DNA of 64,000 nucleotides from Tubulanus polymorphus (GCF_964204645.1 NC_134026.1:14728150-14792149), one strand, 5' to 3'. Positions 1 through 56,062 are shown, counted from the stretch's first letter. Numbers and translations: made by a program. Notes: generated from the letters alone by a model not told the origin.

Positions 1-3000
1 TCTTTTGTTTCTTCTCTTTTGAATTTTATATATTCATCTAAATTGCAACCATACGCGACTGTGTGGATTCCATCATCTAAAATATATCTTTTATCATCAA
101 ATGGGTTTAGACTTATCTTTTCAATTTCTTCAATATACATTTCATGATCTTCAGATCTTAAACATTTCATTTTATGTTTTCTAACTTCTTCATTAAATAT
201 ACAATTGATGTAATCTTTAAAATGAATATTCTTTTCAACAACGCTTTTGGTTATTCCTTTTAACTTTTTAGCTTCATGTTCTTTAGTTTTATATGAATAC
301 ATTTTAGATCTAATACCTATGAACTCTATCATTTCTTCACCACCTAATTCATCTTTAAACTTCCCGGGAACTTTTTTATTATCATTGCTAAACAATTCAT
401 GATCTTTAGGATAGTTACTGAAATCAAAATGATGATTTAATATTTTTAAATCATCAGTTATGTTATCACTTTTTATCTTTAATATGTAAGAATCTGTATC
501 TAGATATAAGATTTCTATATTTTTTTCCCCAAAATGGGGTTGCAATACATTATAATAGAATTCATACATCAATAGCTTTGATAACTCTAAAACTGCAGCT
601 CCAACATAAATAGGTTTATTGAACTTCATAGAAGTTCTTTTTAATTTAACTGCTGCTAAATTTTCATCAAATATTCTATTACCTATGAATTTCGGATACG
701 ATTGCAAATGTCTAATTCTTTTACCATTACTAACTAACTCAATATCATTTCTATTTCTTATGTTTTCACATGTTTTTCCATAGAACGCATTATTCATTAG
801 TTTAAAGTAATCTTTTTCAAAATCAGTTTTAGCTTCAGTTCTCTGTGTAGTATTAAAATCTATATATTTTTCTAACCACTTAGATTGATTAAATGAAATA
901 TATCTATGTACTTTTTTTAATATCATTCCTTGTCTCAAATAAAACTTCAACATTCTATAATGTACTACATAATTATATTTATCTTCTTGAGTTACCATTA
1001 ACTTTTCAGTATGAATATGATTATCGGGTTTAATTCTTTTTTGATAATTTGATAATTCTTCATGTTTAACAGTTTTATGTTCGGGACAATATTCTAGATT
1101 TCTAGATTTGAATTTAATATTTTCAGGGTATTCTAAGTCTACAACGAAGAAGTAACCAATATCTGAATCATCTGCAATATCTAGGATTCTTTTCTTCCAA
1201 TCAAATTTATCAATTTGTAAAACTTCAGTTATTTCAAACATCCCATAAGGTTGTGGTTCCATCATTGCCCAACCATAAAGATTATTTGCATCTATGTATA
1301 ATAATTTATATCCAGGATTATCATTTACATTGAAATATCTATCACCTAATACACCTGAAACACCTCCTCTTATAGATTTTTCAAATAATAGTAATTGATC
1401 TATATTTGTTAACAAATCCATTTTTATATCTGTAAATTTTAAACCACAATCCCAAGTTAATCCTGGGCTAGAATAACAATGACAAGGATCAATATTGAAA
1501 TATTTTAGGTTTACATCTCTAAACCTTTCGAATATATCGGTTAATAATAATACATCTGATTTTAAATATAAATCTACTAATTGTCCATGATTTTTAATTT
1601 CAAAATGATTCCAAATATTCAATGTTCTATTATATACTTCATCTTTAACATATTCATTTTTTAATTCATCATAGAATTGTTCTTTCAATAATTCAGTTAT
1701 TTTAAAATCATTATGATTTTTATAGAAAGAATATGGAATTGCGCCTTTATATCTCATTAATTTAAAATCATCATAATTTGGGTAATATTCTTTTAATATC
1801 TTTAATTCATCATCAACTAATGATTTTGATAAGTTATCTAATGAACTATTTAAAAATCTATATGAATCTATAAATCTTAGACAACCAAATTGGAATGATA
1901 TATAATTCTCAGATGTTTTAGCTAACATTCTAAATTTATAAGTTGGTATTTTATCTTTTGATCTATTTGAATTTAATATTTCTATTTCATTATTGATTTC
2001 TTCTATTTTATGACACAGTTGCTTAATGAATAAATGCGCGTCATACCCCGATAAATTGTGAAATATAATGGGGACAAAATTTACTTTTTTAGCTTGTAAA
2101 TTGCAAGCCTCATGCGCTGCACCTCTAAATTTACCATTCAAATGATCATGGTCTCTTACTTTTTTATCTTTATAATTAAATAGTTTTTCACAATAATAAC
2201 ATTTATCTGCAAACTCAAATACTTCTTTATCTTCTTCTGTCATAATTATTTCTTTATTTGTATTCAATAATTTACTAAATCTTATTTCATATTCAATTAA
2301 TAAGTCACAAAAATGATTGATAACATTTTCATTTCTATACTGATAATATTCACTTTCAATTAGTTCTGGATAATCAGATTTAATGTATAACCCGAAAGCT
2401 GCAGCTGATTGATGAATCTTTTTAATTGTATTTGTTATTGGTGGTTCTTCTGAATAATCACTTTCATTAGAATTTAATTTCTTTCTTTTATAATATATAT
2501 CTTTTCTATCTTTATCTGTTAATTCTTTATTAAATGATTCAAAATCTCCATATATTACAAATGGTACTTTATTTTTGTAATCATATTTTTTGAATTCTAA
2601 TATTTTATCTTTTTCACTTGGTAAAACTAATTTACAATAATCATGATTATCACATAGTTGTTTATGATTTAATAATGTACTTTCATTACTGAATTTATGT
2701 AAACATTTTCTACAAAGATATATTTTATGGTGATCATTTTCTGATTTGAAAAATAAATCGATTTGTTTAATCCACATATAATGATTCTCATAATATAGTA
2801 TATCTATAACATCATTTGAATCATAATCTTTTGATAGATATAAAGGTTCTAATGTATAATGTTTTATGTTGTTACCTTTTGTATTTGGTAATTTAATTAA
2901 ATCAAATACATTTATTTTAAGATTATTATCTCTTTCTATTTTTGGAATATTTTTAATTCTAACAGGATACTTATCTATCTTATAATTATTTTCAAATTGT

Positions 3001-3998
3001 TTATAATGAGTTAATCTATAAGTATGTTTATTATAATCTTCAACTGGGTGTAAACAACTTATTATAGCCCATAGAAAACATTTATCATCTTCATTTTGTA
3101 CATTTATTACACCATTAGTTTTAAATGGTAGTTTAATATAACTTGTTCCATTTATACTATCATCTTTATAATATGATAAATTATTTTCATCAATTGGTTT
3201 TGATTTAGTTAACTTATTATATTTTGTGTTATAAACATGTAAAGTTATAAATATTATCTCATCAAATATTAAACCAGATCCTTCAAAATATTTCTCTTCT
3301 ATTTTAGTTTTTATTTCATTATAACATTTATTTAATTTATCATCTATATGTTGTTTAGATATAATATGTTGTGAATGAGAATTTATATTATATATTGGTT
3401 TATCTTCAGATTTTATAAACTTTACTTTAACTGATATACTAATTTTAGGATATTCAACATCTGTAATTATTTTTATTATTTCTTTCATATTTTCTAAATG
3501 TTTTTTATTTTCTTCTAATGTTTTACCTTTATGAAATTTAAACTCGATAGCTGCTGGACCAATATCACTTTTAAATGCTTCGGTTATCTCTATATCTTTT
3601 TTATTATCTAATGAATTAATATAATTTCTTACATCTTCCATGTATGGTCTTTTATTGTTTAATTTATTTTTTATTCTTTTAATTGTCTTCTGTTTCTTAT
3701 CGTTATCATTATCAAAATAATCTTCGCCTAAAATATCATTATTCTTATTTCTAATATGACTTATAGATTTTAAATGTTCTTTATAATATCTTTTATCACT
3801 GAATGATTGATTACATGTATCACATTTGTATGTTTCTTTTTCATTCTTTAATTCTTCTAATTTAGTTTCTAATATATCATCTTTATATTCTAGTTTCAAT
3901 TTATTCTCTAAATGTGTTCTAGTTTTATTGTGTCTTGCTTTTTGGGATTTATCTATATCGATATTACATGTTGGGCAGTAGTACTTATTTGCTTCCAT
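1..3998 (-). CDS. Protein-primed family B DNA polymerase (pPolB) of a Polinton/adintovirus-like element; 3' end lies outside the window
   Basis: ATG at 3998 (MEANKYYCPTCNIDIDKSQKARHNKTRTH...). Frame checked by hand at 3071, 2105, 1265 and 500. Motifs read: exonuclease VIYGDFES and FHNLSGYD, endonuclease VII/HNH-like insert CYYC..VRDHDHLNGKFRGAAHEACN, polymerase YIDANNLYGWAM, KLMNNAFYGK, YLDTDS; N-terminal zinc fingers and DDKCFLWAI...NHYMWI (vOTU-like). The track lists no ORF here, as expected for one open frame running off the edge. Confidence 0.95.
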   Translation of the reverse strand, partial: MEANKYYCPTCNIDIDKSQKARHNKTRTHLENKLKLEYKDDILETKLEELKNEKETYKCDTCNQSFSDKRYYKEHLKSISHIRNKNNDILGEDYFDNDNDKKQKTIKRIKNKLNNKRPYMEDVRNYINSLDNKKDIEITEAFKSDIGPAAIEFKFHKGKTLEENKKHLENMKEIIKIITDVEYPKISISVKVKFIKSEDKPIYNINSHSQHIISKQHIDDKLNKCYNEIKTKIEEKYFEGSGLIFDEIIFITLHVYNTKYNKLTKSKPIDENNLSYYKDDSINGTSYIKLPFKTNGVINVQNEDDKCFLWAIISCLHPVEDYNKHTYRLTHYKQFENNYKIDKYPVRIKNIPKIERDNNLKINVFDLIKLPNTKGNNIKHYTLEPLYLSKDYDSNDVIDILYYENHYMWIKQIDLFFKSENDHHKIYLCRKCLHKFSNESTLLNHKQLCDNHDYCKLVLPSEKDKILEFKKYDYKNKVPFVIYGDFESFNKELTDKDRKDIYYKRKKLNSNESDYSEEPPITNTIKKIHQSAAAFGLYIKSDYPELIESEYYQYRNENVINHFCDLLIEYEIRFSKLLNTNKEIIMTEEDKEVFEFADKCYYCEKLFNYKDKKVRDHDHLNGKFRGAAHEACNLQAKKVNFVPIIFHNLSGYDAHLFIKQLCHKIEEINNEIEILNSNRSKDKIPTYKFRMLAKTSENYISFQFGCLRFIDSYRFLNSSLDNLSKSLVDDELKILKEYYPNYDDFKLMRYKGAIPYSFYKNHNDFKITELLKEQFYDELKNEYVKDEVYNRTLNIWNHFEIKNHGQLVDLYLKSDVLLLTDIFERFRDVNLKYFNIDPCHCYSSPGLTWDCGLKFTDIKMDLLTNIDQLLLFEKSIRGGVSGVLGDRYFNVNDNPGYKLLYIDANNLYGWAMMEPQPYGMFEITEVLQIDKFDWKKRILDIADDSDIGYFFVVDLEYPENIKFKSRNLEYCPEHKTVKHEELSNYQKRIKPDNHIHTEKLMVTQEDKYNYVVHYRMLKFYLRQGMILKKVHRYISFNQSKWLEKYIDFNTTQRTEAKTDFEKDYFKLMNNAFYGKTCENIRNRNDIELVSNGKRIRHLQSYPKFIGNRIFDENLAAVKLKRTSMKFNKPIYVGAAVLELSKLLMYEFYYNVLQPHFGEKNIEILYLDTDSYILKIKSDNITDDLKILNHHFDFSNYPKDHELFSNDNKKVPGKFKDELGGEEMIEFIGIRSKMYSYKTKEHEAKKLKGITKSVVEKNIHFKDYINCIFNEEVRKHKMKCLRSEDHEMYIEEIEKISLNPFDDKRYILDDGIHTVAYGCNLDEYIKFKREETK

Positions 3999-4080
3999 TT
4001 TAATACTATATTTTTTATTAAAATTGATTTTAGAAGTTCAATGATTTAAATGTTATTCATATATATATGAATATTTTAAG

Positions 4081-4488
4081 AGTAATAGGGGTAATGGGCT
4101 TTCAAGCTAAAGGTTTAATGATCGAGCCCATTAAAAAACAAAATATTAAAAGTAATTAAAAAACTATAATATATTTTCATAACCGTGTGCATTTCAGTTG
4201 AATAATAGAATAATTATTATCATTTGAATATATTTGATTATTTGAATTTGTGTATTGTAATTAAATCAATTGGTCGCGGAGCGGAGCGGTGGCGAAGCGG
4301 AGCGACCAATTGATTTAATACAATATGCTTTTTATATTATTGATATCTTAGAATAAATATTTAGTTTTGATATAAAATACACGTGGTTATGAAAATATAT
4401 TATAGTTTTTTAATTACTTTTAATATTTTGTTTTTTAATGGGCTCGACCGTTCGACCTTTGGCCTGAAAGCCCATTACCCCTATTACT
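4081..4488. repeat. 408-bp fold-back terminal palindrome of element 1
   Basis: 4081-4185 (AGTAATAGGGGTAATGGGCTTTCA...TTTTCATAACC) is the reverse complement of about 4385-4488; central perfect 17-bp stem 4261-4277/4302-4318 around a GGAGC-rich loop. Confidence 0.95.
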
Positions 4489-7734: not shown

Positions 7735-7894
7735 AAAAAACATACACGATTAACAGAAACTAAAACTAAGAATATAAGATTAAATAATGATTCTAAAATA
7801 AATACATCAGAAAACATTAAAACTGATAATATTCAACATGATATAATTGAAAGTAATAATAATATATCACATGAAAATGCTAAATTAGCTATAA

Positions 7895-7980
<86 letters not shown>

Positions 7981-9100
7981 TTTAGATTTTAATTTTTATA
8001 TGATATAAATGGAAGGAGAAGGTATGGAAGGCGTAGAAGATTTTTGGAATGGATACTTACGACGAACCTGGTATGACTAATGAACAACCACCTGATTTTA
8101 CTGACACAAGTTTTAGCAACGTTAATGAAACAGCATATAATTCTAATTTAGAAGGCCCGGATTCTTATAATCTAGAGGGTTTTAAAAGAAACAATAAATC
8201 AAGAATCGATCCTGAAAATGATAATCTAGATTTAGTAAAAAAAAGACTAAGAACATAATGAATCAATTCATCATTTTAAACCTATATTTGAAAGATCAGG
8301 ATATAATATAAATGATATAGGTACTTATTGCCACATTTGAAATCTTTAGATGGCGAATATTATTATCATTTGAAAGATGATTACTAAATTAATATTTCTT
8401 ACAAAAATCAAAATAAAATATTAGTAGCAGCAACTTGAGTAATTTAGAACCATCTAGAATTAAAGGAATAATTGGTAATGATGTTATTACTGATGTTACA
8501 AAACATAAATAAAAGAGTATTTAAACAAAGAATTTGTGAATTATTTGAAATGGTTAATAATAATTTAGATAGAACCAGTATCAACTTCTTAATGGAATAT
8601 AACTTCTAAAACTAATAAACCTGAATCAAATAACGTTCCAATTGAAAAACTTTTACCAAATGGATTACTTGATGCGCCCGATCAAGAAATAGAAGCTTTA
8701 AATAAACAATTTTCTGATAAAACAATTAGAGAAGTTAAAGGTATAAGAAATGAAGCTGATACAATTGCCACAATAAAATGATTGGCGATTATGAAATTAA
8801 AACTTTAGAAGATGAATTATCAAAAAATGAAGAATTAAAACATTTAAAGTTAGATAAATGTAGATAGAGATAATAAAGTTATTGAAGAAATTGAATTAAA
8901 GAAAAAGAAATGTGAGTTTGGGAAAAGAAATTGATGATTTAAATTAATTTCTAGAAGTGCAGAAAGAAGAAAAATATATACTATTAAAATCAGAAGCTAA
9001 TAATTTTAAATGATTAAAATTTATTATTAAAGATTCATTAATAAAACCAAATTCTTAATTATCATTAAAAGATGGAATAAAATTAGTATTTAAGTTATAA
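7735..9100 (+). mobile_element. Fragment of the same Polinton-like family (end of one gene plus a decayed acidic/coiled-coil gene starting near 8009)
   Basis: 7735-7900 is a close reverse-complement match to 49968-50145 (AACAGAAACTAAAACTAAGAATAT...CATGAAAATGCTAAATTAGCTATAACTTAT); next gene begins at a TATAAATG. Right boundary approximate. Confidence 0.8.
7897..7974. repeat. (TA)n microsatellite
   Basis: Direct reading. Confidence 0.99.
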
Positions 9101-41947: not shown

Positions 41948-43038
41948 ACCAAGGAATTTCTTCGGGGGCAGCCAGATTTATCGTGGAATCCAAACGTCCC
42001 TCTACCGGAGCATTGTACGATTCCAAATGGGAATGTTACTCCGATTGGTGTAATAGGAGAGCGGTGGATTCTCTCCACCCCTCTGTGTCAGAGTTAATAG
42101 ATTTTTTCTATTTCCTGTTCGAAGAGAAGAATAGACAGGTTATAACCATTAAAGGCTACAGATCAGCAATAGGGCATACTTTTCGTTCAGCGGGCGTCCC
42201 TGTAGTGACGGAGGATGTGAAAATAGCTCAATTGATATCAGGTTTTGGGGTTAAGAGACCCAAACAGGTTTCAGATATCCCGCCATGGGACTTAACAGTG
42301 GTTCTTAGAGCACTTATGATCACTCCCTTCGAGCCTATCCGCAATACTACCCTGTCAGACTTATCTAAGAAAACGGTGTTCTTACTGTTCTTAGCGATGG
42401 CCGCGAGGCGTTCAGAGGTTCATGCTTTATCGATGCGTCCTGGTCATATTTCCTTTGGTCCACAAGATAGGTTTGTCATTTTAAGGCCTGGTCTTAGTTT
42501 CATTGCCAAGAATCAAAAGGCTTCCGTAGCAGCCAGATCTTGGAAGATCGAGGTTTTGACGCATAGGGTATCTCACGATCTTCCTGATACGTCGCTCTGT
42601 CCAGTAAGAGCTTTAAAGGAGTACCTAGAGAGGACACTTCCCCACAGACAAGATAGGGAGAGGCTCTTTATTCCTCTCCGACAAGGGGATAAGAGAGATA
42701 TCGCAAGGGACACAATCGCTTGATGGATTGTATCTTTAATTAAAGAAACTCTGCATTCTCAGGGGGCCCAGGCTCCGCTCGGGATACATTCTCATCAGGT
42801 GAGGGCATTAGCCACATCCTGGTCATTATTCACGGGGGCTTCCTTGGAACAGGTTTGTCGTTCAGCCTTCTGGACGTCTCCATCTACCTTCTCGTCATTT
42901 CATTTGAAGGACGTTTCTGGACAGTTAGGCTCACTGTCCACGTTGGGTCCAATTGTTACTGCACAACGAATAAGCGTACAAAAACCCAAAAAACATCGGG
43001 CCCAGTTAGACCTTTTTAAACCAGGTCCTGGGGATTAA
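41518..43038 (+). pseudogene. DIRS tyrosine recombinase (nonsense codon at 42721; catalytic Tyr position reads His)
   Basis: AMAARRSEV, LCPVRAL, then after TGA: HSHQVRALATS, AFW, TFSSFHLKD. Confidence 0.9.
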
Positions 43039-43542
43039 AGGGTTTCTTCTGTATTCAGCTATAAGAAAGTTGATGTATATAAGTTGTGGGCATCTTTTAC
43101 AGGGCCTAGGTTACCTTAAGACAGTTAGTGGTAAGGGTTCCTTTTTTGTTATAGGTATTAAGTTTAGACATGAATCATGATTTCATTTATATAGCCTGGG
43201 CAAGGCTGCGTCTAGAGTTTAAGTTTTTTGCCTACTGGTTTAGGTTAATATCGAGGTAATGGCATTCAGTGCCTTACTAAGGTATCCGGGAGTGAGTTGA
43301 CACCGGGTTGTTTGATTTCCTTTTTTCGACTCAAACGTAACGGGGTCATAATAGGCATGTTATTATCTACCAATACAGTTAGGAACTGAAAAGGAAGCGG
43401 CACGGTAGCTCCCTGATTTTTGGTTTTCCACTGGCTCACCTGGGGTTTGTTGCGGTTTTCTGCAGAGAGTTTTAGGGTGAGTGTAAGTGTAGAGAATTTA
43501 AATCGACTTTTGGTCGCCTCCCTCCTCCATTCTTTGGGATTC

Positions 43543-43642
43543 TGGCTATAGTGTATTTTCCCAGGGAATGTATTCGAAGTAAATATTACAATTTTGTTCA
43601 AAAATTGGTATTTACGAGGAATACTTACCTGGGAAAATACAC
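43543..43642. repeat. DIRS internal complementary region (ICR)
   Basis: First half complementary to the left end (TATTTACTTCGAATACATTCCCTGGG), second half complementary to the right end (CCCAGGTAAGTATTCCTCG...AAAATTGTAAT). Confidence 0.95.
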
Positions 43643-44655
43643 GGGTATTCCCACCCAGCCGTCCCCCAGGCGATTGAGGGATTATTGGCGCAAAAAGATG
43701 ATGGCGTCTCGCCAGATGGCGCTATGTTACGGCGCCCCTACCAAAAGTCGATTCGGGCGTTATCTGCCTAGCCAAAAGCAATATGGCTATAGTGTATTTT
43801 CCCAGGTAAGTATTCCTCGTAAATACCAATTTTTGAACAAAATTGTAATTTTTCGCAAAAAGCTGAAAGCAAAAATATCAGTTTTAAAAAGCCAATCTCC
43901 TCTATGATTGGATTAGCTGCAGAAATCAGCAGGTGTTCATGTGAACCCGCGGTATCGTTTTACTGTTTTACTTCCAGGTTTTATCTTAAGATTTAAAATT
44001 GTATTTCAAGATCGATTTCTGTGAAATCTATATTTGATTTTGTTTTCGGAGGAATCTTTATTTACACTACAAAAGAAATTCATCCTTGACGATTGCCCAA
44101 TGGTCAAGAAAATTATGTTTTTCTCATATCGGATGGATGACCTTGATATGCTAATTAGCCATGTGCTCAAATTGCAAATTCAATAGGCAATCAATATAGG
44201 ACTGATATTTAATGCATTTCCAGTAGGTCACCGAATACCTTTCTCTGTGTCCGCCGTGCGCTGGTCCCTTTACACCAGTAATTGGGAACGTAGGCTTTCA
44301 TACCAGAGGTCGAGCGGTCGAGACTCCACTCATCACCACAAGTAATAATTCAATTGAGTATGAGACACCACTCATCACAGCTAGGCTCTAGTGAGAACGG
44401 ACGATTGCTCTGTGGTACACATATACAGTGAGTGCGCGTAACAACAGCTGCGCGTGGATAGATCGATACAGTGAGTCTCTACTGAGAACGGTTATTAACG
44501 CGTGTGCTATTACTGTAGTACAGTGATTGCGTGTCAACTGTTCCCAGATAAATAGATGCTGTGAGGCTTGGGTGAGAACGGTTAATAGCGTGTTTGTTAT
44601 ATACAGGGGGAAGTAATCCCCACTCATCACCACAAGTAATTTGTTTTCCTTATTA

Positions 44656-44982
44656 ATGGGAGATAGAAAAGCATTCTTAGCAACAATAAATAACAGAATA
44701 AAACCAGCAAAAAAACAATTTGAAATAAAAAAGTTAGTTGATGTTACAAAAGAAATTGAACATAAAATATTGAAATTAGAAAAGATAAAAACTAAATATG
44801 GAGAGAAAGTATCAGCTAATTTAAGCTACTGTAATGTAAGTACATCGCGAGAATTTAAAGTATTTTTACCTGATAAATGGGCTTCATTGAGTACAGAGGA
44901 ATTAAAAGATTTAGAAGGATTTAAAATAATCTATCATGGAAAAAATGAAGATGGCCATCATGATTTAGAAATTGTTGATTAA
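44656..44982 (+). CDS. Small basic protein, paralogue of 53511-53864 (possible OB-fold ssDNA-binding protein)
   Basis: Shared KKL..KYG(E/D)K..F...LPD..LS.E.L..Y.GKNE.GHH pattern; function is inference. Confidence 0.7.
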   Translation: MGDRKAFLATINNRIKPAKKQFEIKKLVDVTKEIEHKILKLEKIKTKYGEKVSANLSYCNVSTSREFKVFLPDKWASLSTEELKDLEGFKIIYHGKNEDGHHDLEIVD

Positions 44983-45114: not shown

Positions 45115-45492
45115 CTAAAATATTAATCCATTTTTTTTTATTATCAATTTTGGAATTTCAGAAGTATTTTCATTTTTGATAGCAGTTGTTTCAGAATTAT
45201 TAATATCATGAATTTTATTTGATTTCTTATACCAATTACACCCAATCAAAATGAATAAAATTACAAATCCAACTGTAGAATATAGACATTTATCAAATAT
45301 TCTATCATTAGAAGGAGTAGAAATAACAATATTTTCACTATTTTTATTAACATTTTTATTACTTATTTTTTCTTTTACATCTTTTTTATATTCTTGTGAT
45401 TTAATTCCTAATTGCTGAGACCATTCAATTTGTTTCTGTGATCTCGGTTTTTTCTTCACAGTTAATTCCTTCACTTCTTCCACCTTGTTCAT
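45115..45492 (-). CDS. Basic protein with one predicted transmembrane segment
   Basis: TAAATG start; KKKPRSQKQ; VGFVILFILIG. Confidence 0.7.
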   Translation of the reverse strand: MNKVEEVKELTVKKKPRSQKQIEWSQQLGIKSQEYKKDVKEKISNKNVNKNSENIVISTPSNDRIFDKCLYSTVGFVILFILIGCNWYKKSNKIHDINNSETTAIKNENTSEIPKLIIKKNGLIF

Positions 45493-46028
45493 TTATTATA
45501 GAAATATTTTTACTTTCAATATTTGAAAATGTTATAACTCCAGTTGATAATAATGTCATAAATCCACCTAATTGAAATGATAAATATCCAATCCATTTAT
45601 TTAATTCAGTCATAACTAAATAATCATTTTTTAAATCGGAATATAATCTATTTTCATTCAATTGGTAGTATATAATTACATAATTTACTATAACCTTTTA
45701 CTACATTTTCTGATATCGCGTCATTAATTCTAGCTGTTCTCGCGGCTTCATAAATCTTAAATAATCTAATAATTTCATCTGATTTCATTGTATCTAATTC
45801 ATTATAAGTTAAATTTTTACCGACAAAATTTTTACATTTTCCAGATGCTATTAATATTTCTAATTGATGTTTACAATAAAGATAATATTCATAATTATTA
45901 TTTGTTGTAACATTATTTAAAGCACCATCATCTGGAGTTAATTTTGTTTCTGTTATTCCTAAATCATCTAAAGTTTTTTCAATTGGAACATCACCATTTT
46001 TAGATTTTATTTTCTTTTCACCTACCAT
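45425..46028 (-). pseudogene. Polinton-associated hypothetical protein (frameshift near 45657)
   Basis: Two overlapping ORFs join into one protein (LEILIASGKCKNFVGKNLT...LPIE/NENRLYSDLKND); TAAATG start. Confidence 0.7.
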
Positions 46029-46057
46029 TTATATAACAAAAATATTATTTGTGATGT

Positions 46058-46332
46058 TGTAACTAGAATTCAACTAGAATGTAACTAGAATTCAACTAGA
46101 TTAACAAGCTAGTTGAAATATTGTTGTTTTTGTTTATTTCTTGTTAAATCTAGTTGATTTTTGTTCCAACTACTAACAACTAGAATTCAACTAGAATGTA
46201 ACTAGAATTAAACTTGATTAACAAGCTAGTTAAAATATTGTTAAATCTAGTTGATTTTTGTTCCAACTACCAATAACTAGAATTCAAATAGAATGTAACT
46301 AGAATTCAACTAGATTAACAAGCTAGTTGAAT
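46058..46332. repeat. Intergenic repeat array, three blocks of AACTAGAATTCAACTAGAATGTAACTAGAATTCAACTAGATTAACAAGCTAGTT
   Basis: Direct reading; blocks near 46060, 46177 and 46276. Confidence 0.92.
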
Positions 46333-46947
46333 TTAGATAAATTCATATTTAAATGGGTGTTGTAATCTAAATAGTAATTTTGATCTTTTAATATTTTTCA
46401 ACTTATCCATATATTCATTATGTAAATCATGTGGAATAATATCATTTTCCTCAAGTGCATTTTTCATCGATTTTCTATCTTTATTGTAGAATAAAACTAG
46501 AAATCTAATGTTTTCTCTAAAGTCTTCAACAATTGAATTATATTTTTGATTTAAAACCCAAGTTGTTATCCCAAAATGTCTGCCAGAAAAAGCTAAATAG
46601 CATAACTCACTTTCTCTAACTTTTGAATCATGTAAATTTGCGCAATCATCTATGATAAATAATGTATTTGATCCTTTATAAATATCAATTGCTATTTTTA
46701 TACAATTATCTTTATCTAAATTTTCTTTTACTGTTTTATGATCTAATATAATAAATTTATTATTTCTAGTAATATTTCTATCATAAGTTTGATTAAATTC
46801 ATATGTTGGACAAAATAATACTATATTATCAAAATAGTTTTCATAAACAGTTTCTAATAAATTTAATATAAAATAAGTTTTTCTACAATTTGTTACGCCA
46901 GAAATTAACATATTATGAGGCTCAAATATGAATAATTCCTTATTAAT
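46333..46947 (-). pseudogene. A32/FtsK-like genome-packaging ATPase (Walker A Gly to Arg; probable start ATG to ATT)
   Basis: ISGVTNCRKT, LFIIDDC, SGRHFGITTWVLNQKY..FREN; in-frame TAA-ATT at 46947 directly after the integrase stop. Confidence 0.88.
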
Positions 46948-48075
46948 TTATATATTTTTAATTTTACTTGATAATATCCATTCATTGAATTTATCTGGCC
47001 ATCCAACCCATTTTACTAAAGAATATTTTTTTCTTTTAATAGTTTTTGTTTTTAATACTTCTTCAGTTTTATATTCTTGTTCTAGATTTTCAGTAGTTAA
47101 ACTCAATTCTTCTTCGTAAAAGTAGCCATCAACTTCTTCACCATCTAAATCTTCTAATTTATAGACATATGGTTTTGTTGTTATTACCTTTTTTATTTTA
47201 TATATTTCTCTAGTAAAATTTCGATCGTATCCTTTATCAAATATCTTTTTATACTTAGAAATTCTAACATTTTGACCAACTTTAAATTTAGGTTCACCAA
47301 AATCATCTACAAGAAATGCTCCGTATAAATTATTCCAAACAATTTCAGCATTTTCAGGTTTTCTAGCATCAATAGGTTTCATTCCAATAGAAGAATGATA
47401 AGAATTATTATATCCTTCTATCAATTTTGGTAAAACATCAATCCATTTTAAAGTATTATTTGCTGTAAAATATTTCCACATTCTTGTTCTTAATGTTCTA
47501 TTAAATCGTTCAACAACTGCCGCTTTTTTATCCGATTTTGTTGAAAAATATTTTATATTATGATTATCTAAGAGTTCATGAACAAGTGAATTATCAAACT
47601 CTTTTCCATCATCAAATTGTATTATTTCTGGTTTTAGTTTATCATCCGAAAGAAATTTTCTTAAAACATTTGATGTTTGTACAGCATCTTTTCTATAAAG
47701 TGGGAAGCTCCATACATAACGACTAAAAATATCAATTATATTCAATATCTACCAATAATCATCATTATCTTTTTTAACATTTTTCATATCAATTAAATCT
47801 CCTTGCCACTGTTGATCTACATAACTTACCATAGTTTTACGAGTTTTATATTTTCTAACAATTTTTTTATGTGTTGTGTATGTTGGTTGTTCTAACATAA
47901 ATTCATTTATATCTTTATATTTAATTAAATTTTGTGGGATTATCTTATCTAATTTATCTTGTTTTACTTGACGCCATATTTTTTTGGCAGAAGAATAAGC
48001 AACCGAACTCTCAGGGTTGTAATATAAATTTCTTAAATATTGTTCTTTAGTATTAGGAGATTTTATACCACCCAT
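46948..48075 (-). pseudogene. Retroviral-like (rve) integrase with C-terminal chromodomain; single in-frame TAG at 47749
   Basis: WQGDLIDM, IDIFSRY, QFDDGKEF, VVERFNRT, YSLVKWVGWPDKFNEWI; both ORF pieces are in the same frame. Confidence 0.95.
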
Positions 48076-48105
48076 TTATATATCGTTAATTTTAACTTTA
48101 TATTT

Positions 48106-49353
48106 CTAATATTGAATACTATCTAATTGTGAATTTACAATATTTAGTTGTGCGTCAGATATAATATAAATGTGCATTTTGAAATTTAAGCTTCCTTTTT
48201 TCTTTTTCATGAATAATTGTATTCCATCTTTTGTATTTTGTAGTTTTTTCCCAGAACCATGTAATGAATTATCCTCTGTTGTTCTAAAATCTAACCATAA
48301 TGCGTATTTATTGCCGGTATAATAATCAATTTGATTAATATTACAATTTTCAAATGATTTTACTTTTTCATTCATAAAATGTTTTCTAATTTCTGGCCAC
48401 TGATCTATCATTCTCATTCCTTGACAAAATATTTTATTTGCTATTCCTTCGATAGTTATTTCTACTTTTGTTATTTCAGGATTATAATAATTATCTACCT
48501 TTATTGCACCATTAGAATATGTTGCAATGGTAAAAAATATTAATATACCTTTAATAGATCTTCTTGGGAAGTTAATATTCTCATTAATTATTTCATCATT
48601 TGCATTAATAGTTACAGTTTTAAATTTATCAATATAATCATATAATAATGAAAATCCTTGATTGTATTGAGTTTGAATTGTGCTAGCAATATTTTCATTA
48701 GTTACTGTGTTATATTCTAAACATATATTCGATAATTTATAACCCATATCTTTAACAACGCTAGATAATACAATTTCATTCACAGGAGCAAATGTTATCT
48801 CAAATATAATATCTTCTTGAATTGCGTATTTATATACAGGTGCATTATTATTTATCAATTCAAAGTCTAATGGAATTTTATATTTGCTTCCATAAATCTT
48901 TTTAATCAAATCATCTATGGCACGAGTTACTATTGCGTCATTAGCTCCCGATCTTAATTTATTATGGTTTTCCGATTGAATACCCTGAAATATCATATTA
49001 TTTCTATTTTCTTTAGTTAACCATAAATCTTTATAATGCATAAATAAATTATAATCATCTAATGAGAAAACTGTTTCTGGACCAATCTTTATTGTTAATT
49101 TTATAATCAAATATCTCCCAACATTATCAACAACATAATTATTATCATGACCAGTTACTTTTATATCAGCTGATAAATAAATACTATTTGGAACATAAAA
49201 AGTATTTTGTGTTAATCTAGGAATTCTAACATATAAAGTTTCATCGGGATTTATATTTGAAGGATTATGAGTAATTATATGATGTGATCTTTCTGCTTTA
49301 ATAGCATTAGATATTCTAGAAATCTTAGAAGGACTTATATAACTCCCACTCAT
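48106..49353 (-). CDS. Major capsid protein (double jelly-roll, hexon-like)
   Basis: Intact 415 aa; THNPSNINPDETLYVRIPRL, YKDLW, INENINFPRRSIKGIL, YNPEITKVEITIEG, KYALWLDFRT..LHGSG resemble invertebrate Polinton MCPs; size and context fit. Confidence 0.85.
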   Translation of the reverse strand: MSGSYISPSKISRISNAIKAERSHHIITHNPSNINPDETLYVRIPRLTQNTFYVPNSIYLSADIKVTGHDNNYVVDNVGRYLIIKLTIKIGPETVFSLDDYNLFMHYKDLWLTKENRNNMIFQGIQSENHNKLRSGANDAIVTRAIDDLIKKIYGSKYKIPLDFELINNNAPVYKYAIQEDIIFEITFAPVNEIVLSSVVKDMGYKLSNICLEYNTVTNENIASTIQTQYNQGFSLLYDYIDKFKTVTINANDEIINENINFPRRSIKGILIFFTIATYSNGAIKVDNYYNPEITKVEITIEGIANKIFCQGMRMIDQWPEIRKHFMNEKVKSFENCNINQIDYYTGNKYALWLDFRTTEDNSLHGSGKKLQNTKDGIQLFMKKKKGSLNFKMHIYIISDAQLNIVNSQLDSIQY

Positions 49354-49379
49354 TTATTTAATAAAAAAATTAATTATTT

Positions 49380-49967
49380 ATTTTTATTATTTTTTTCTTG
49401 ATATCTTTTTGATATCATATTCACTAACCCAAAAATAATAGCACTTACAACTGTAATTAAAAATAAAATAATATGTTCAGCAGCAAAGTTAATAATGTTT
49501 CCTGCATATTTGAATCATTATCAATTTGTTGAATATCTCTTCTCGATGTTTCGGGTGTTGAAGATCTTAATCAATCTAATCGATCTCCATATTCTTCCAT
49601 TTCTGGATCAAAATCAGTAGGGTTTAAATTTGGATTTTTTAATGGTGAATATTTGTCAATATCAATTTTAGGAATTGGTTCTTCTTCATTTATTCTATCG
49701 ATTGCATTCCATTTAATTCTGAGAAATTCTCTACCACCTTCTGAACGTTCAATTGAAGATCCTGCACGCATTTCAGGATGGAACAGATCTTCTTGTCCCA
49801 TTTTAGATAATTGAATTGATACAGTTTCGTTATTTAATTCAACTTAATAAAACCATGGATCATTTTTAAATTCTAAATTATTCATAAAATGTGGATCATC
49901 TTCTCTAATTTGTTCTGAAATATCTTCTGGTTCAATGTTATCTGTTATATTTTTTGGTAATAATATA
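49380..49967 (-). pseudogene. 3' remnant of a gene ending in a hydrophobic segment
   Basis: Short ORF 49571-49801 and a decayed hydrophobic tail near 49400-49500; 5' part missing. Confidence 0.45.
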
Positions 49968-51255
49968 ATAAGTTATAGCTAATTTAGCATTTTCATGGGA
50001 TTTATTATCATCATTAGTTTTAATTATAACATGTTGAATATTATCAGTTTTTTATATTTTCTGTAGTATTGTAATCTTTTATTTTAGAATCATTATTTAA
50101 TTTAATATTCTTAGTTTTAGTTTCTGTTGATTGAATATGTTTTTTATTTTTTTCACCTTCCATTAATTTTGGAGCAGTAATAATCTTTTTATTTATATCA
50201 TTTAATCCAAATGAATTATTTATTGTTGCAGTCTTAATTAGATTATTATAACCAATTATATTTCCCATATTTAATACTAAATCATTAGAAATAATTAATA
50301 GATTAGGGCCTATACAATAATTTAATCTATTATGTGATTTATCTAAATAATTTTGATATCTTACAATGTTTTCTGGAATCGATCTATTTTTATCATTATG
50401 AATAGAATCTTCAAATAATACTTTAAATTGTTTCTGCGCATCAAATGAAGTGTTATCATTTCCAACTATTGGTGATCTTGTTTCAACTTGCGCGCCTAAA
50501 ATACATATCAAATAAGTTCTAATAGATTGATTTATTCTTTGTATTCCAGCTTTAGTAAAACCTTCTCTATTTTCTAAAATAAAATTAATCCAACCATTAT
50601 TGTTTTGTTGTTGTATATTATAATAATATTTTGGTAATTCATTCCAATTTAGTGTTTTTATATCTGTATTTGTCATTATTTTTCCAAATTCTTTAGTATA
50701 TAATATTCCTAATCCACCCATTGTTCCAATTTTTGCTCTAAAATCATTATTTGAATTAATATTAAATTCATTACATATTTTATAAAACTAAGAAAAATTA
50801 ATATTATTTTTCAATTCTTTAAAATATTTTGAACCTGGTAAAGGACATTGTAATTCATCTAATATTAATTTCATTTGAAAATATGTATGAAATCTAAAAA
50901 GAGATAAGTTAACATCAATGGTAAACTTGGTTTATTTAAATGATCATTCCAACTTATACCACATCCTGTTGTTGCGCAATAAACAGCAAAATTTTATTGG
51001 TTCTGCCAATACTTCATATTAGATTTTAATAACCATTGTTTTGCCTCATTTAAATTTCTAAAATTAATTAAATATATATGAAATATATTTTATCTTTGCA
51101 TTAAAATTATTAGTTTCAGTAACATAAATTTCTAAATTAGTTAATGAATCTAAAACTTCATTTCTATATGAAATATCTTTATTAAAATTTATTGCTGGAA
51201 TATTATATTTAATTGATTCATTATATTGGAAAGCTTTTGGAAAACTATCTACCAT
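49968..51255 (-). pseudogene. Conserved Polinton-associated hypothetical protein (FAVYCATTGCGIS / FRFHTYF motifs), frameshifted
   Basis: ORF pieces 51064-51255 and 50044-50721 linked by a decayed region; GFTKAGIQRINQSIRTYLICILGAQVETRS motif. Confidence 0.75.
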
Positions 51256-51271
51256 TTATATAATTAAAAAA

Positions 51272-51706
51272 TTAATAATTAACTAATTCTTTTAATAATT
51301 TATTTTGTTCTTCAACTGTTATATGACCATTTAAACTTATTATATAATCTAGTGTATTCTTCAATTTATTAATTTCTTTTATATTAGTTTTAATTTTTTC
51401 TTTATTACTTTTTATATTTAATTTTGAACTTATACCAGTTAAAACACTTGATGATAATCCTAACACACCAATTGATATAGCTAAAGGTGTTAATGGACTG
51501 AATATTGCTAGAAATGTTATTACAGAACTAATTGTAACTGAACCACTGATAATAAAATAATATATAATTTTACTTTTTAAATATTTTTTCTTTTTTATCT
51601 TTAAGTCACTTTCAAATTCTAATATTTCTTTTTCTAAATATATTTTTAGTTTAGTTTTATTTATATCATGAGGAATAATATCAATATTATCAACTTTATC
51701 ATCTAT
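51272..51706 (-). pseudogene. Two-transmembrane coiled-coil protein (start appears mutated, ATG to ATA)
   Basis: TAAATAGATGAT start context; hydrophobic SVTISSVITFLAIFSPLTPLAISIGVLGLSS. Confidence 0.55.
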
Positions 51707-51725
51707 TTATTTAGCAAAAAAATTA

Positions 51726-52134
51726 CTAATTAGTAAATTTATATGCTACAAATATAACAATAACTGTTCCACCTAAAATCCAAATTATTTCATATTTCTG
51801 TTGTTCTTTACTTGGGGTATAATAATCTGATAAATTAGGTTTGTACAGATGTAATTTTTCTTTATTGGTTACCGCGTTATATAAACTCATTGCATCATCG
51901 ACTGATTGAAAATCTCTATGTGAAATCTTCTGATCATATAATTCTTTGTTAATATAATCCATATAGTTTTGTCTTCTTCTGCAGCTTTATTGTATTTTTC
52001 TAATGCTAAGTTATGTCTTTTTTGTTCTGATAATGAACCATTTTTATCAATATGCTTAAATAAATAACCACCACCAGTAAATGCTAAAGTGTAACAATTG
52101 CCGATCCTATAATAGTTATTATTGCAGAAGCCAT
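51726..52134 (-). pseudogene. Small Polinton membrane-associated protein (MASAII..LAFTGGGYLF..EQKRHNLA..), frameshifted
   Basis: TAAATG start; hydrophobic ends. Confidence 0.7.
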
Positions 52135-52150
52135 TTATTTAGCAAAAAAT

Positions 52151-52377
52151 TTATGCATTTGTATTCGAGGAATATTTTTTTTCTCCAAATAATCAATAGT
52201 TAGATTAGATAAAGTAACTGCTAATGTTAATTTTTAAATATCATTTATATCAAATCCATCAACATTAACAATTCCCATTTTAAAAACTTTTTTTAATACC
52301 ATTGAATAACCAACAGTTCCAACTGATAGTAAGGCTCCATTATATAATCCAGTTATTATTCACTTATTATCACTCAT
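52151..52377 (-). pseudogene. Small hydrophobic Polinton protein with stop and frameshift
   Basis: MSDNK*IITGLYNGALLSVGTVGYSMVLKK...TIDYLEKKNIP. Confidence 0.6.
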
Positions 52378-52721
52378 TTATTTATCAAAAAAAAATTACT
52401 ATCTTCAAAATATTTAGTTATCTTAGTTATAATTATTTCAACATTTATTTCATTACTACTTTTATGATTATCATATATTTTGGATAATATGTTTTTAATA
52501 TCATCAATAATTCCATCTTCATTTAATTCATAATATTCTAATGGCGTTTTAATTAAATCAATTACTTTTTCTATATTATAATTTTCTTTATTAATCATTG
52601 ATGCATTGTTAAATGATTTACTTTTTATATCAGTAATTACATCATTTAGTTTAATTCTCATTTCTTTACCATGTTTAAAATCAAACCCAAAACATATACT
52701 CGGTCGTACTGTTATATTCAT
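52374..52721 (-). CDS. Hypothetical protein
   Basis: 115-aa ORF in the co-oriented array, preceded by a T7 run. Confidence 0.55.
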   Translation of the reverse strand: MNITVRPSICFGFDFKHGKEMRIKLNDVITDIKSKSFNNASMINKENYNIEKVIDLIKTPLEYYELNEDGIIDDIKNILSKIYDNHKSSNEINVEIIITKITKYFEDSNFFLINK

Positions 52722-52821
52722 TTTTATAGTGAAAAAAATTACTCTCTACATCTTATAACTAATTCATATATCACAGGAAAGATATTCAAATCGATTAAAT
52801 ATCCATTATGATTTATAATTT

Positions 52822-53496
52822 CTAATCAAAATTATTAAATTGAGGAATGCATGGTTTGAAATCACATTCTGTTAAATTATAATTTATTTGCGTTTCAAAT
52901 TCTTTAACATTCTTCAATGGTAAAATGTTTAATAAACCAGAATTACAAGTTATATCTTTAGGTGCTTCGAATGTTTTTGTAGGATCGATTAAATTGCAAT
53001 AAATATAAAAGTGTGTAAAAGGTATTAAGTTTGGTGTAGCATCAGCATTGCGTATCCTTACATCTGGGGTTATTCCTAAAATTTTAGCTAAAGGTTTTTT
53101 AACTAGATATTGATGTTGATCTTCATTGCCTAATTTTATTCTTATTTTATCAGAGCTATCACTTTTAATCAGTCTTAATCCAAATCCAGCAGATGCACCC
53201 ATTTTCAACCGAGCTCTTCTATTAATTTCCTGCGCTAATGTATCTAAATTATATAATCCTGGTTTAAGATAAAGATGAAACCATTTACTTTTATTTCTAT
53301 CATGAATTAAAAAGACTCTATATTCAATAGTTTTATCCGATACATTGTCAAAAGAATTACATAAACTTATATTAACTAATTTTAAATCAACACAATTCTT
53401 AAATTCTCTATCTAATTGTACTAGTAAATTATGTGATTTATAATTTGTAAGTCTCCTAGAATCAACAAATATTCGGTATTCTTTTAATTCTACCAT
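52822..53496 (-). CDS. Minor capsid protein (penton, single jelly-roll), C-terminus probably truncated
   Basis: IFVDSRR N-terminal motif, LKPGLYNLDTL, FYIYCNLID, LLNILPL. Confidence 0.75.
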   Translation of the reverse strand: MVELKEYRIFVDSRRLTNYKSHNLLVQLDREFKNCVDLKLVNISLCNSFDNVSDKTIEYRVFLIHDRNKSKWFHLYLKPGLYNLDTLAQEINRRARLKMGASAGFGLRLIKSDSSDKIRIKLGNEDQHQYLVKKPLAKILGITPDVRIRNADATPNLIPFTHFYIYCNLIDPTKTFEAPKDITCNSGLLNILPLKNVKEFETQINYNLTECDFKPCIPQFNNFD

Positions 53497-53510
53497 TTAT
53501 TTTACATATT

Positions 53511-53864
53511 TTATTCGAAATCTATTTCATGGTGCCCTTTTTCATTTTTACCATTGTATATGAAGTAGAAATCTCCAGAACATAATTCTTCTAAATCTTC
53601 ACTTGATAATCTATCAAATCTATCTGGTAAACATGTTCTGAATTTATATTTATTTCCTTTTAATCCTTCATATTCTAAGGGTATAACTAATTTATCTCCA
53701 TATTTGTTAGTAACTGTAACAATATTTGTAATTAGATATTTCTTATGGATTGGTAATTCTTTTAACTTCTTAAATTTATAATCTACTGATTTGACATTTG
53801 AAGTATCTTTTATTCTATCTAGAAATAATTTGTTGTTCTCACTATGTGTTTGTTTACTCTCCAT
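53511..53864 (-). CDS. Small basic protein, paralogue of 44656-44982 (possible OB-fold ssDNA-binding protein)
   Basis: FKKLKELP..TNKYGDKLV..LPDRF..YNGKNEKGHH. Confidence 0.7.
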   Translation of the reverse strand: MESKQTHSENNKLFLDRIKDTSNVKSVDYKFKKLKELPIHKKYLITNIVTVTNKYGDKLVIPLEYEGLKGNKYKFRTCLPDRFDRLSSEDLEELCSGDFYFIYNGKNEKGHHEIDFE

Positions 53865-53882
53865 TTATAATCCATATTTTTA

Positions 53883-54524
53883 TTAAAATTTGATTAACAC
53901 GTTAGAATTCTTTTCATAATTGATATGTTTAACTGTTTGATAATGTTTTGATTTATGTGATCTTAAATATTTACCACCGCAATAACAATACACTTTTTCA
54001 TTAGGGTTGAATTTTCTAAATTCATCATCAAAGTTACATTGAACTGCAATATCTTTATAAGAATTATTATTAACTGATTCACATTGAATACCAATATTTG
54101 ATGAATTTTCATTATAGATAATTTGTTTATTATCAAAATTGAAATAATATAATTGGCTTTTTTCAATTCTTAAGTTAATCAAATCATTGTAATCTTTAGA
54201 AAGTATTATATCACTTTTTCTTTCATTGAAAGGAGTTTTAAGAATATTTATTATGTTTTCATCTAAAGTTCCTTTAAAATTAAAAACTGTATTGAACATT
54301 TTAGGATTTTTAACACCATTATCAAAAGTATCAATTAGTTTAGTAATTAAATATGTTTCATTTGATAATATTTGATTAATAACAGTAATATTTTCAATTT
54401 TATAATGTCTTGCGGACACTAAATTTGTTACTGAAATATAATTTTTAATGTTAAACTGTGAAAATTATTGATTGGTTTCATTGATTTCGATTTTAAAGTT
54501 GGGTTCTTCTTCTTCTTTCTTCAT
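53883..54524 (-). pseudogene. Hypothetical protein with C-terminal zinc finger (one in-frame stop)
   Basis: ATG at 54524 in frame; EKVYCYCGGKYLRSHKSKHYQTVKH. Confidence 0.65.
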
Positions 54525-54556
54525 TTTTATGACAAATTTTTTATTAAAACTCATTC

Positions 54557-55085
54557 AAATATAAATATTCAATGTTTTAAATATGAATTATTTCGCTCGT
54601 TAATTACTCGTTACTTTTTATATTAAAAATCAAGAATTTAACACATATAAATATAAATATACACTGTTTTAAATATGAATTATTTCCCTCGTTAATTACT
54701 CGTTACTTTTATATTGAAAATAAGAATTTAATACATATAAATATAAATATTCGCTGTTTTAAATATGAATTATTTCACTCACACTTTACTCACACTTTTT
54801 ATGTTAAAAAATAAGAATTTAACGCACATAAATATAAATATTCACAGTTTTAAATATGAATTATTTCACTCACACTTTACTCACACTTTTTATGTTTAAA
54901 AATCAAGAATTTAACACATATAAATATAAATATTCACTGTTTTGAATATGAACTATTTCACTCACACTTTACTAACACTTTTAATGTTTAAAAAACTAAC
55001 TCATACAAATATAAAAATTGAAATATGTTTAAAATATATCTATATATCTATCTATAAGAGCTCGTTAATTACTCGTTACTTTTAT
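54557..55085. repeat. Subterminal tandem repeat, about 5 units of 90-92 bp
   Basis: AAATATAAATAT..TGTTTTAAATATGAATTATTTC recurs near 54557, 54649, 54739, 54830 and 54922. Confidence 0.93.
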
Positions 55086-55360
55086 ATTGAATAATCTATC
55101 AATTTATATGTTATTCATATATATTTTATTCATGTATATGATTATTTTAAGAGTAATAGGGGTTTAGTTGTTCTAGATTAAAGGTTGAAAGGGCGGGTGA
55201 GTAAAAAATGAAAAATATGAAAATAATAAGAATTTCTACGTGAATAAGAAGTGAAACTCATAAAAAATGAAATATAAATTCGAGCGTGCGAGAATTATTT
55301 TTCATTTTTATGAGTTTTCCTAAAACCAATGATATAATTAATAGTCTCATCTCCGCATGC

Positions 55361-56062
55361 CGGTATATGGGAACCTATGTCAAGATCGGTCATGTTCTCA
55401 TAGTAGTATGTTCCCGTATGTTGTTGTATGTCAATAAAATCATATTTTTAAGAGATCTGGGTTTACAACGTAGTTAATCAATAGAACTCTTAGTTGTCTG
55501 CCTAAATATGCTCATTATATTAAGATAAACGTGAGTTCCCATATACCACGGTATATGGGAACCTATATCGAGGTCGGTCATGTTCCCATAGTAGATTGTT
55601 CCCGTAACCCGCGGCGTTTAGCAGAAAATATATAGTGAACTAAATCGATTACAGAGTTGATACCTAGCTAAATCGTCTTCTTCTACAATAATATCCGATC
55701 TAATATGGCGCCATTGGATCAAAAATATGACGGCGTTCCTATAACACTAAGTACCCGCATCCCTGTACTTGTATATGTCAATAAAACCATATTTTTAAGA
55801 GATCTGGGTTAACAACGTAGTAAACCAATAGAACTCTTAGTTGTCTGCCTAAATATACTCATTATATTAAGATAAACGCGAGTTCCCATATACCACGGTA
55901 TATGGGAACCTATATCGAGGTCGGTCATGTTCCCATAGTAGTATGTTCCCGTAACCCGCGGCGTTAAGCAGAAAATATATAGTGAACTAAATCGATTACA
56001 GAGTTGATACCTAGCTAAATCGTCTTCTACAATAATATCCGATTTAATATGGCGCCATTGGA
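55361..56062. repeat. Tandem duplication (period about 350 bp, plus a partial third copy) of an unidentified sequence
   Basis: TGTCAATAAAA(T/C)CATATTTTTAAGAGATCTGGGTT...ATGGCGCCATTGGAT occurs twice. Confidence 0.9.

Follow-up and report, generated by a model that had tools for sequence, protein, structure and literature searches.

The block at 45115..55165 of a 64,000-nt stretch of DNA from Tubulanus polymorphus (GCF_964204645.1 NC_134026.1:14728150-14792149), referred to here as the window, is, judging by its sequence, an integrated and since decayed member of a multi-copy family of polinton-like viruses (PLVs). Most of its genes begin in TAAATG with a T at a near-constant distance upstream, and the same arrangement marks a clade of related elements and is nearly absent from sister elements that have core genes in common with the clade. 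TAAATG together with a T at position -12 is a cis-signal, promoter-like rather than a translation device. It resembles promoters of vaccinia virus, and the element is probably a satellite, the free DNA of which would be transcribed in a pox-type virus factory, followed by its own replication, packaging, and integration. What is new here is the promoter contrast between clade and sisters and its test against an iridovirus-like motif; the helper-matched promoters of virophages and the association of PLVs with entomopoxviruses were already known.

The Signal at the Gene Starts of the Window Element

The original prediction had placed most minus-strand gene starts of the element in TAAATG, and all nine ATGs that it listed (45492, 46028, 48075, 49353, 51255, 52134, 52377, 53496, and 53864) do lie directly 3' of a TAA. 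The plus-strand TAAATG at 8009 is likewise present; it belongs to a further copy and sits between remnants of the 442-amino acid (aa) and 485-aa family genes. Two sites taken for mutated versions read TAAATT (46947) and TAAATA (51706), as described, and since nearly all reads of other copies differ from the window inside these sites, they look decayed in the window copy. Homologous proteins of relatives, aligned by tblastn, begin at or just inside the TAAATG sites even where the window frame is broken, as at 52377 and 52134, where frames of only 5 and 16 aa are left.

TAAATG is found at 9 of the 11 starts with an intact ATG versus 13 of 227 other minus-strand ATGs (p=3e-10); the two remaining intact starts (52721 and 54524) read TAAAAATG. 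Among host-side open reading frames (ORFs) of the window, 0/16 start in this way. The string T5-N6-TAAATG occurs four times, against a mean of 0.09 in 300 local dinucleotide shuffles, none of which (0/300) reaches four, and all six matches to T5-N(5-7)-TAAAT, for 1.04 expected, fall at gene-start sites. Because the bare hexamer shows no more than a mild excess (22 versus 13.7 in the shuffles, 4/300 of which reach 22; 13 of the 22 are internal) while its placement at gene starts is strong, position rather than count carries the signal. The motif thus stands above a composition-matched background, and AT-richness is not the explanation. The stereotyped T-run with a 6-nt spacer, which had also been proposed, was borne out at several starts of the capsid and membrane block; it concerns only part of the genes, and the spacer at 51255 is 7 nt long. 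Upstream of 53864, 53496, 48075, 46947, and 45492, an A-run takes the place of the T-run. All 11 window sites have a T at -12 or -13.

A Near All-or-None Contrast Between Clade and Sisters

Relatives were collected as metagenomic loci (L-numbers), the capsid search giving 169, of which the best 80 were used. Among 66 readable capsid starts, TAAATG is present in 13 of the 14 loci with at least 50% identity and in 0/52 below that value. In a quick maximum-likelihood tree of the capsid (107 rows, segments below 300 aa excluded, midpoint root, SH-aLRT support only), a single branch with an SH-aLRT of 99 contains every TAAATG row (14), together with one TGAATG row and 16 rows for which there is no DNA. 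For all ORFs of at least 100 aa, TAAATG starts number 55/65 in the clade (46/54 when four near-copies are removed) versus 4/343 in the sisters, and with starts matched by orthologue, 37/44 versus 0/22 in near sisters and 0/239 in far sisters (0/261 together). The contrast is therefore close to all-or-none; a weakness is that the loci, being incomplete and akin to one another, give counts that are not independent and p-values that overstate independence. Nor is the motif compositional, because AT-rich sisters lack TAAATG (1/55 in sister loci below 40% GC, 1/25 at a GC content of up to 0.32) while GC-richer clade loci, at 30-44%, keep it (22/26).

In 22 other polinton-like loci, TAAATG is found at 18/220 starts, and at 11/213 with L094 set aside. 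L094 (L094:1-9034) is an unrelated polinton, with a pPolB 29% identical to the clade query and a protease-like domain fused to its integrase; all of its starts (7/7) are TAAATG, with back-to-back promoters, and it may represent a second origin of the signal.

Capsid and ATPase queries had no match in a viral contig collection, and a scan of genome contigs for relatives gave three distant ones, inside prokaryote metagenome-assembled genomes (MAGs). A clade capsid (cluster P0045) is annotated in several Bartonella sp. genomes, on short contigs, and is most likely carried-over animal DNA.

A Probable Promoter Rather Than a Translation Device

Vaccinia late promoters have TAAAT(G) over the start codon (PMC11980589; PMC5294985) and a conserved T at the tenth base upstream, and intermediate promoters have TAAA plus an A/T-rich block upstream (PMC11980589); slippage of the polymerase at TAAAT gives rise to 5' poly(A) leaders (PMC6211774). 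The clade is alike in its TAAATG and in its upstream T. A T at -12 is found at 54/60 clade starts versus 27/90 non-start TAAATG (p=8e-14), and a T at -13 at 43/60 clade starts. The clade differs from vaccinia in that the A-rich block is nearer to the initiator than the 15-19 nt described, and in having the signal at nearly every gene, with no early-type promoter noticed. The idea of a structured cis-signal with vaccinia post-replicative spacing has thus held up: the signal is clade-specific, uncoupled from stop codons, and has its T within one base of the vaccinia position.

It has to be asked whether the motif might serve translation, by stop-start coupling or as an initiation context, or be a by-product of AT-rich compact genomes. 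The GC content of the element is indeed 0.20-0.25, versus about 0.32-0.53 in the flanks, the integrase stop abuts the ATPase start in the window (where it supplies the TAA of site 46947) and in L001, and several T-runs stand directly 3' of a stop codon. Across the clade, however, only 1/61 TAAATG starts abuts an upstream stop, and 17 face a divergent gene, 12 of them at a distance of 19-30 nt (each pair being counted twice). A null model taking the first ATG after a stop gives TAAATG in 95/1537 cases, the -12 T is outside any translation signal, and the behavior of AT-matched sisters and GC-richer clade loci is the opposite of that expected from composition. This explanation is largely refuted, and we hold it to be very unlikely.

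Back-to-back promoters in the clade span about 25 nt, which also bears on the possibility of an autonomous nuclear element, in which host RNA polymerase II (Pol II), steered by a factor of the element or of the host, uses TAAATG as an unusual initiator. Between divergent starts so closely spaced, two Pol II promoters with their 5' leaders would not fit, and the T at -3 of 56/65 clade starts is a poor scanning context, avoided by the sisters, in which -3 is a purine in 245/343 starts. The host-side ORFs lack the motif, and neither the use of AATAAA within genes (0.90 versus 0.88) nor splice-site avoidance separates clade and sisters. On the other hand, VLTF3 has been reported in polintons (PMC11131425), several clade genes have no known function, and the near sister L035, which is of the TATA type described below, encodes at L035:5082-5576 a weak VLTF3-like late factor (E 3.6e-5, 24 bits versus a Pfam cut-off of 25). 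No homologue of the latter was detected in the clade loci, the window, or the other loci searched, and no transcription-factor family matched the scanned clade ORFs. Nuclear autonomy is, in our estimation, quite unlikely.

Promoter Classes and the Early Terminator

The start of pPolB had been thought to lack the motif. This proved incorrect, as the start at 3998 reads TAAAATG, with a T at -12 and TAATAAAAAAT upstream, like those at 54524, 53864, and 53496; TAAA joined to ATG behind an A-run is an intermediate-like poxvirus signal. No common variant of this initiator is seen in the 40 of 51 read rows listed, and the probable pPolB start of L011 is a full TAAATG. Nor is the signal confined to structural genes, since replication and packaging genes have TAAATG too. 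A division into T-runs for structural and A-runs for replication genes was considered and abandoned, as it holds in the window and fails across the clade. Two-class promoter timing in the clade is thus no more than a suggestion.

TTTTTNT has been called an early signal, and an entomopoxvirus uses both TAAATG and TTTTTnT (PMC3061580). In the coding strands of the clade, TTTTTNT occurs 14 times for 36.1 expected from synonymous shuffles, and other T-runs 39 times for 53.9 (p=0.027 for the difference); in far AT-rich sisters it occurs 20 times for 23.7 expected. Its avoidance is weak support for a pox-type polymerase and is partly unexplained.

Which Helper Virus?

Motif scans for a helper returned mostly phages, with some giant-virus or iridovirus-like contigs and no poxvirus among the matches listed. 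One match was a virus contig of 206 kb in which genes start at TAAATG. Eighteen related loci (L232-L249, including two contigs of about 200 kb) encode MSV199, NIF phosphatase, XRN, a D6/D11-type helicase, and A22, and going by the general distribution of such genes, we take these loci to be iridovirus-like.

The helper could accordingly be sought among invertebrate iridoviruses or other large DNA viruses with a late (AA)TAAATG, and the satellite life style would then be the same. Iridoviruses infect invertebrates, and their late transcription is probably cytoplasmic (PMC5294985, section 6); the iridovirus-like loci start genes at TAAATG, in some cases with the T-runs and TAAATAAATG that also precede the capsid gene of the window, and the block upstream of pPolB includes AATAAA. 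The signal of these loci, of which one group of such viruses was sampled, is nevertheless of another form. It is a floating AATAAA, found at -5 to -9 in 74/115 starts, whereas TAAATG in the clade is fixed and accompanied by the -12 T. AATAAATG is present at 39/42 iridovirus-like TAAATG starts versus 19/46 in the clade (p=2.7e-7), 27/46 clade starts being without the leading AA, and a T at -12 at 18/42 versus 40/46 (p=1.5e-5). TTTTTNT is not depleted in the iridovirus-like genes (90 versus 101.5 expected), and a floating AATAAA without the -12 T was not encountered as the form of the clade. Since AATAAA floats and the -12 T is lacking in the iridovirus-like loci, a pox-type helper fits better, and an iridovirus or similar helper is unlikely. 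The review section on iridoviruses (PMC5294985, section 6), in its accessible part, does not describe AATAAA as an iridovirus motif.

African swine fever virus (ASFV) uses the late initiator TA(+1)TA, with a median leader of 9 nt (PMC7163114), which likens it to the near sisters and not to the TAAATG clade. In these sisters (L014, L016, L035, L060-L062, and L066), TATA lies at most 20 nt from the ATG in 21/27 starts, versus 7.8 in shuffles. A Pol II TATA box would not lie so near to the ATG; the likeness is to the late initiator of ASFV. Egoviruses have been linked to gut protists, and the accessible text of their preprint is without the word promoter.

Several observations weigh against a pox-type helper. 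No sequence of a helper virus turned up in the motif scans, among the matches listed, or in the gene searches described below. TAAATG is found at 42/115 starts of the iridovirus-like loci versus 226/8079 other ATGs, and at 3/8 and 4/5 starts of two giant-virus MAG contigs, which were picked by motif searches; in the window itself, 6/11 sites read AATAAAT, the iridovirus-like form. The "pox-type" match rests on published descriptions of vaccinia, and the T peak of the clade is one base closer than in vaccinia: counted from TAAAT it falls on the ninth upstream base, or on -10 when the first A is numbered +1, and the tenth is a T in 43/60. T-run and A-run classes do not track gene function clade-wide. 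TTTTTNT is also low in near sisters (4 versus 9.6) and in other polintons (52 versus 82.7), the depletion of T-runs is graded with their length and absent in L094, and that of TTTTTNT is not significant in the two intact genes of the window alone. Vaccinia, moreover, obeys TTTTTNT only in early transcription, so that a late-promoter model does not predict its avoidance. Finally, poxviruses have been described from vertebrates and insects.

A Probable Satellite Life Style and Its Precedents

Helper dependence of some kind is suggested by analogy with Sputnik, mavirus, and Gezel-14T and is, over all the readings considered, quite probable. The proposal that the element is helper-activated and possibly antiviral gained no support; the window copy is broken in at least five genes. 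In the model that we favor, that of a satellite of a pox-type virus, free element DNA in the cytoplasmic factory of the helper would be open, as a naked template, to intermediate and late factors. Transcription would begin inside TAAAT, where the polymerase would slip and add a 5' poly(A) leader, and this leader would replace the poor -3 T ahead of the AUG. Starts of the form TAAA(A)TG behind an A-run, as in pPolB and the SSB-like protein, may fire before the T-run starts (capsid, membrane proteins). The element would then copy itself by its own pPolB, package its DNA by its own capsid and ATPase, and re-integrate by its integrase.

A pox-like polymerase might also be resident in the host, encoded by an endogenous pox-like provirus or a cytoplasmic linear plasmid, or the signal might be a relic of a helper that no longer infects it. 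The linear plasmids of yeasts have their own polymerase and a TAAAN initiator with slippage (PMC6211774), and the window copy is decayed. RNA polymerase subunit genes were, however, absent from the scanned ORFs of the window and of 16 partial clade loci, the small conserved protein that was a candidate proved to be OB-fold and SSB-like, and the frames of several clade loci that carry the motif are intact. There is little to recommend this possibility, which we regard as highly improbable.

Helper-matched promoters have precedents in protists. The late motif of CroV precedes all mavirus genes and that of mimivirus 12 Sputnik genes, and matching promoters are known for the Guarani virophage of mimivirus (PMC6723459); an early helper motif is found in Gezel-14T, a PLV of PgV (bioRxiv 2022.07.28.501842). 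Like the clade, as far as its partial loci extend, mavirus, Sputnik/Guarani, and Gezel-14T are small integrating or satellite double-stranded DNA viruses without RNA polymerase, and mavirus shares with it pPolB and an rve integrase. They differ in having protist hosts and Imitervirales motifs, whereas the clade has a pox-type motif and a likely animal host; the clade capsid fold is nearer to those of PBCV-1 and iridoviruses than to that of mavirus, and in contrast to this group no protease was detected in the clade.

In animals, PLVs found in entomopoxvirus occlusion bodies (AHEV_PLV1, AHEV_PLV2, CBEV_PLV1, and Ca_PLV1) have been proposed to be hyperparasites of poxviruses, and one is integrated in a beetle chromosome (PMC11296320). 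They have an adenovirus-type protease, an L2-mu-like protein, capsids of 366-372 aa, and no rve integrase; the clade and the window element have an rve integrase and no detected protease, and L2-mu had no match in Pfam scans. Compared by eye from protein tables, as far as these are accessible, their capsids are without the conserved words of the window capsid family. Their link to poxviruses is physical, that of the clade a sequence signal. The accessible main text of PMC11296320 has no match to promoter, TAAAT, motif, or transcription, and poxvirus-associated PLVs are published, as far as these sources reach, solely in the form of sequences that co-purify with insect viruses, no mechanism being given. 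Mavericks/Polintons, including adintoviruses (PMC8502044) and coral elements (PMC11131425), are animal-endogenous and have pPolB, rve integrase with chromodomain, A32 ATPase, and jelly-roll capsids, as does the clade. They also have an adenain protease, which is not detected in the window capsid family. Neither PMC8502044 nor PMC11131425 has a match to promoter or helper, and no report of pox-type promoters in polintons was found in the literature searched, mostly papers outside subscription.

Animal polintons may be autonomous or satellites, and a promoter code that one clade has throughout, but that sisters with the same genes are without, makes this question testable; the code also leads one to expect a pox-type virus in hosts from which such viruses may not yet be known. 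More tentatively, and with the balance of probability against it, one animal PLV family with a constant gene set might have rewired all its promoters more than once to match its helpers, its copies being perhaps inherited antiviral virophages. By such a scheme, equally doubtful, the clade would have moved to a pox TAAATG, while the sisters nearest to it would have adopted an asfarvirus-type TATA, and the unrelated L094 would have come to TAAATG again. If so, the promoter codes of endogenous polintons would form a fossil record predicting undiscovered pox-like viruses in their hosts.

The Element and Its Genes

The features of the element and of its other copies in the window are collected in Table 1. 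In DNA reads with the same species label, depth is mostly 200-960 over the block versus 6 in the bin 55616-56000, and most reads over the element are 90-99% alike; the family therefore has many divergent copies. At least five genes are broken in the window copy.

Table 1. Positions of polinton-like virus features in the window.
Feature	Position	Strand	Remarks
Polinton-like element, gene block	45115..55165	-	AT-rich; collinear with L001
Probable element terminus	55117..55163	.	blastn 86% over 49 nt to the pPolB-bearing copy, 4044-4092; terminus by inference
Sub-terminal tandem array, unit about 92 nt	54456..54993	.	Repeat family D2
Gene with C-terminal Cys/His motif, one in-frame stop	53883..54524	-	Start TAAAAATG, TAATAAAAAAT upstream
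117-aa OB-fold protein	53511..53867	-	TAAATG, upstream A-run, T at -12
Minor capsid gene candidate, split over two frames	52745..53499	-	TAAATG, upstream A-run
115-aa gene without assigned function	52374..52721	-	Start TAAAAATG behind T7 run
75-aa hydrophobic gene, broken	52162..52391	-	T9-N6-TAAATG at 52375-52391
139-aa membrane-type gene, broken	51729..52148	-	T6-N6-TAAATG at 52132-52148
144-aa hydrophobic gene	51272..51722	-	T7-N6-TAAAT, start codon absent in window copy
442-aa family gene, 7 stops, two frames	49971..51271	-	T6-N7-TAAATG
Double jelly-roll major capsid gene, 415 aa, intact	48106..49367	-	T7-N6-TAAATG at 49351-49367
rve integrase + chromodomain, one in-frame stop	46948..48078	-	TAAATG, upstream A-run
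A32-type packaging ATPase	46333..46950	-	PF04665 E 5.8e-12; TAAAT, start codon absent in window copy
206-aa family gene, two frames	45428..46042	-	T5-N6-TAAATG at 46026-46042
125-aa gene, hydrophobic stretch	45115..45495	-	TAAATG, T at -12
Second SSB-like gene, convergent	44656..44982	+	74% to L001 homologue; start context not TAAATG
pPolB of another family copy, open 1332 aa to window edge	1..4025	-	Start ATG 3998
Remnants of 442-aa + 485-aa genes, further copy	7735..9097	+	T5-N7-TAAATG at 8009

The major capsid protein has 920 homologues, and its structure model (pLDDT 88.6) matches iridovirus and PBCV-1 capsids in Foldseek (E about 2e-16). The integrase matches PF00665 (E 7.5e-7) and PF00385 (E 0.004). 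A candidate minor capsid gene lies at 52745..53499; it is without a Pfam match, and members of its family occur in 22 loci of far sisters and in 8 further polinton loci as well. The 442-aa protein has 1321 homologues, nearly all unnamed, and no match in the Atlas.

The 117-aa protein is likely to bind single-stranded DNA. The best Foldseek match of its model (pLDDT 77.5) is the PRD1 single-stranded DNA-binding protein (SSB) P12 (E 4.9e-3), a VIA search gave OB folds with Z up to 5.9, and the lead in the Atlas for its L001 homologue is the Phi29 SSB (0.87). It had been entertained as a poxvirus polymerase subunit, a candidacy that was dropped on account of its OB fold and SSB-like model.

For pPolB, 5492 homologues were found, many with PF03175 and clade members at 52-82% identity; the window pPolB protein itself had no match to PF03175. 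Within the 45-55 kb copy, pPolB was not found and the integrase is present. The two ends of this copy had no match to each other as terminal inverted repeats, and its terminal stretch is common to the pPolB copy. Upstream of pPolB, at 4081-4488, two inverted arms of 127 nt (88%) lie 154 nt apart, starting with the terminal AGTAATAGGGG stretch, and read depth climbs to about 4000 at the first arm; the arms may form a hairpin at the terminus or belong to a small derived element.

A search with the protease-like domain of L094 matched eight other loci selected by pPolB, whereas neither the window nor the 83 loci of the capsid family, which are partial, yielded an adenain protease. A deoxynucleoside kinase is encoded in two clade loci (L001:10340-10981 and L007:2898-3377, E about 1e-31) and in none of the sister loci scanned; searches with the kinase and with the VLTF3-like protein gave no link to a helper virus. 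Three AT-rich repeats of about 97 nt lie at 46015-46325, between the ATPase and 206-aa genes, and a segment of low read depth (about 87) at 49515-49970 stands in for most of the 485-aa gene in the window copy.

Host and Flanking DNA

We infer an animal (invertebrate) host from three observations: the flanks contain pieces of retrotransposons, the capsid homologues include a bivalve, and the SSB-like gene has look-alikes in arthropods. The retrotransposon fragments, at 20851-21240 and 32377-32778, carry rva_4 integrase and DUF5641. A GC-rich element of 6 kb at 37743-43809, the ORFs of which (604, 320, and 308 aa) had no Pfam match, is bounded by inverted ends of 120 nt that are 98% identical.

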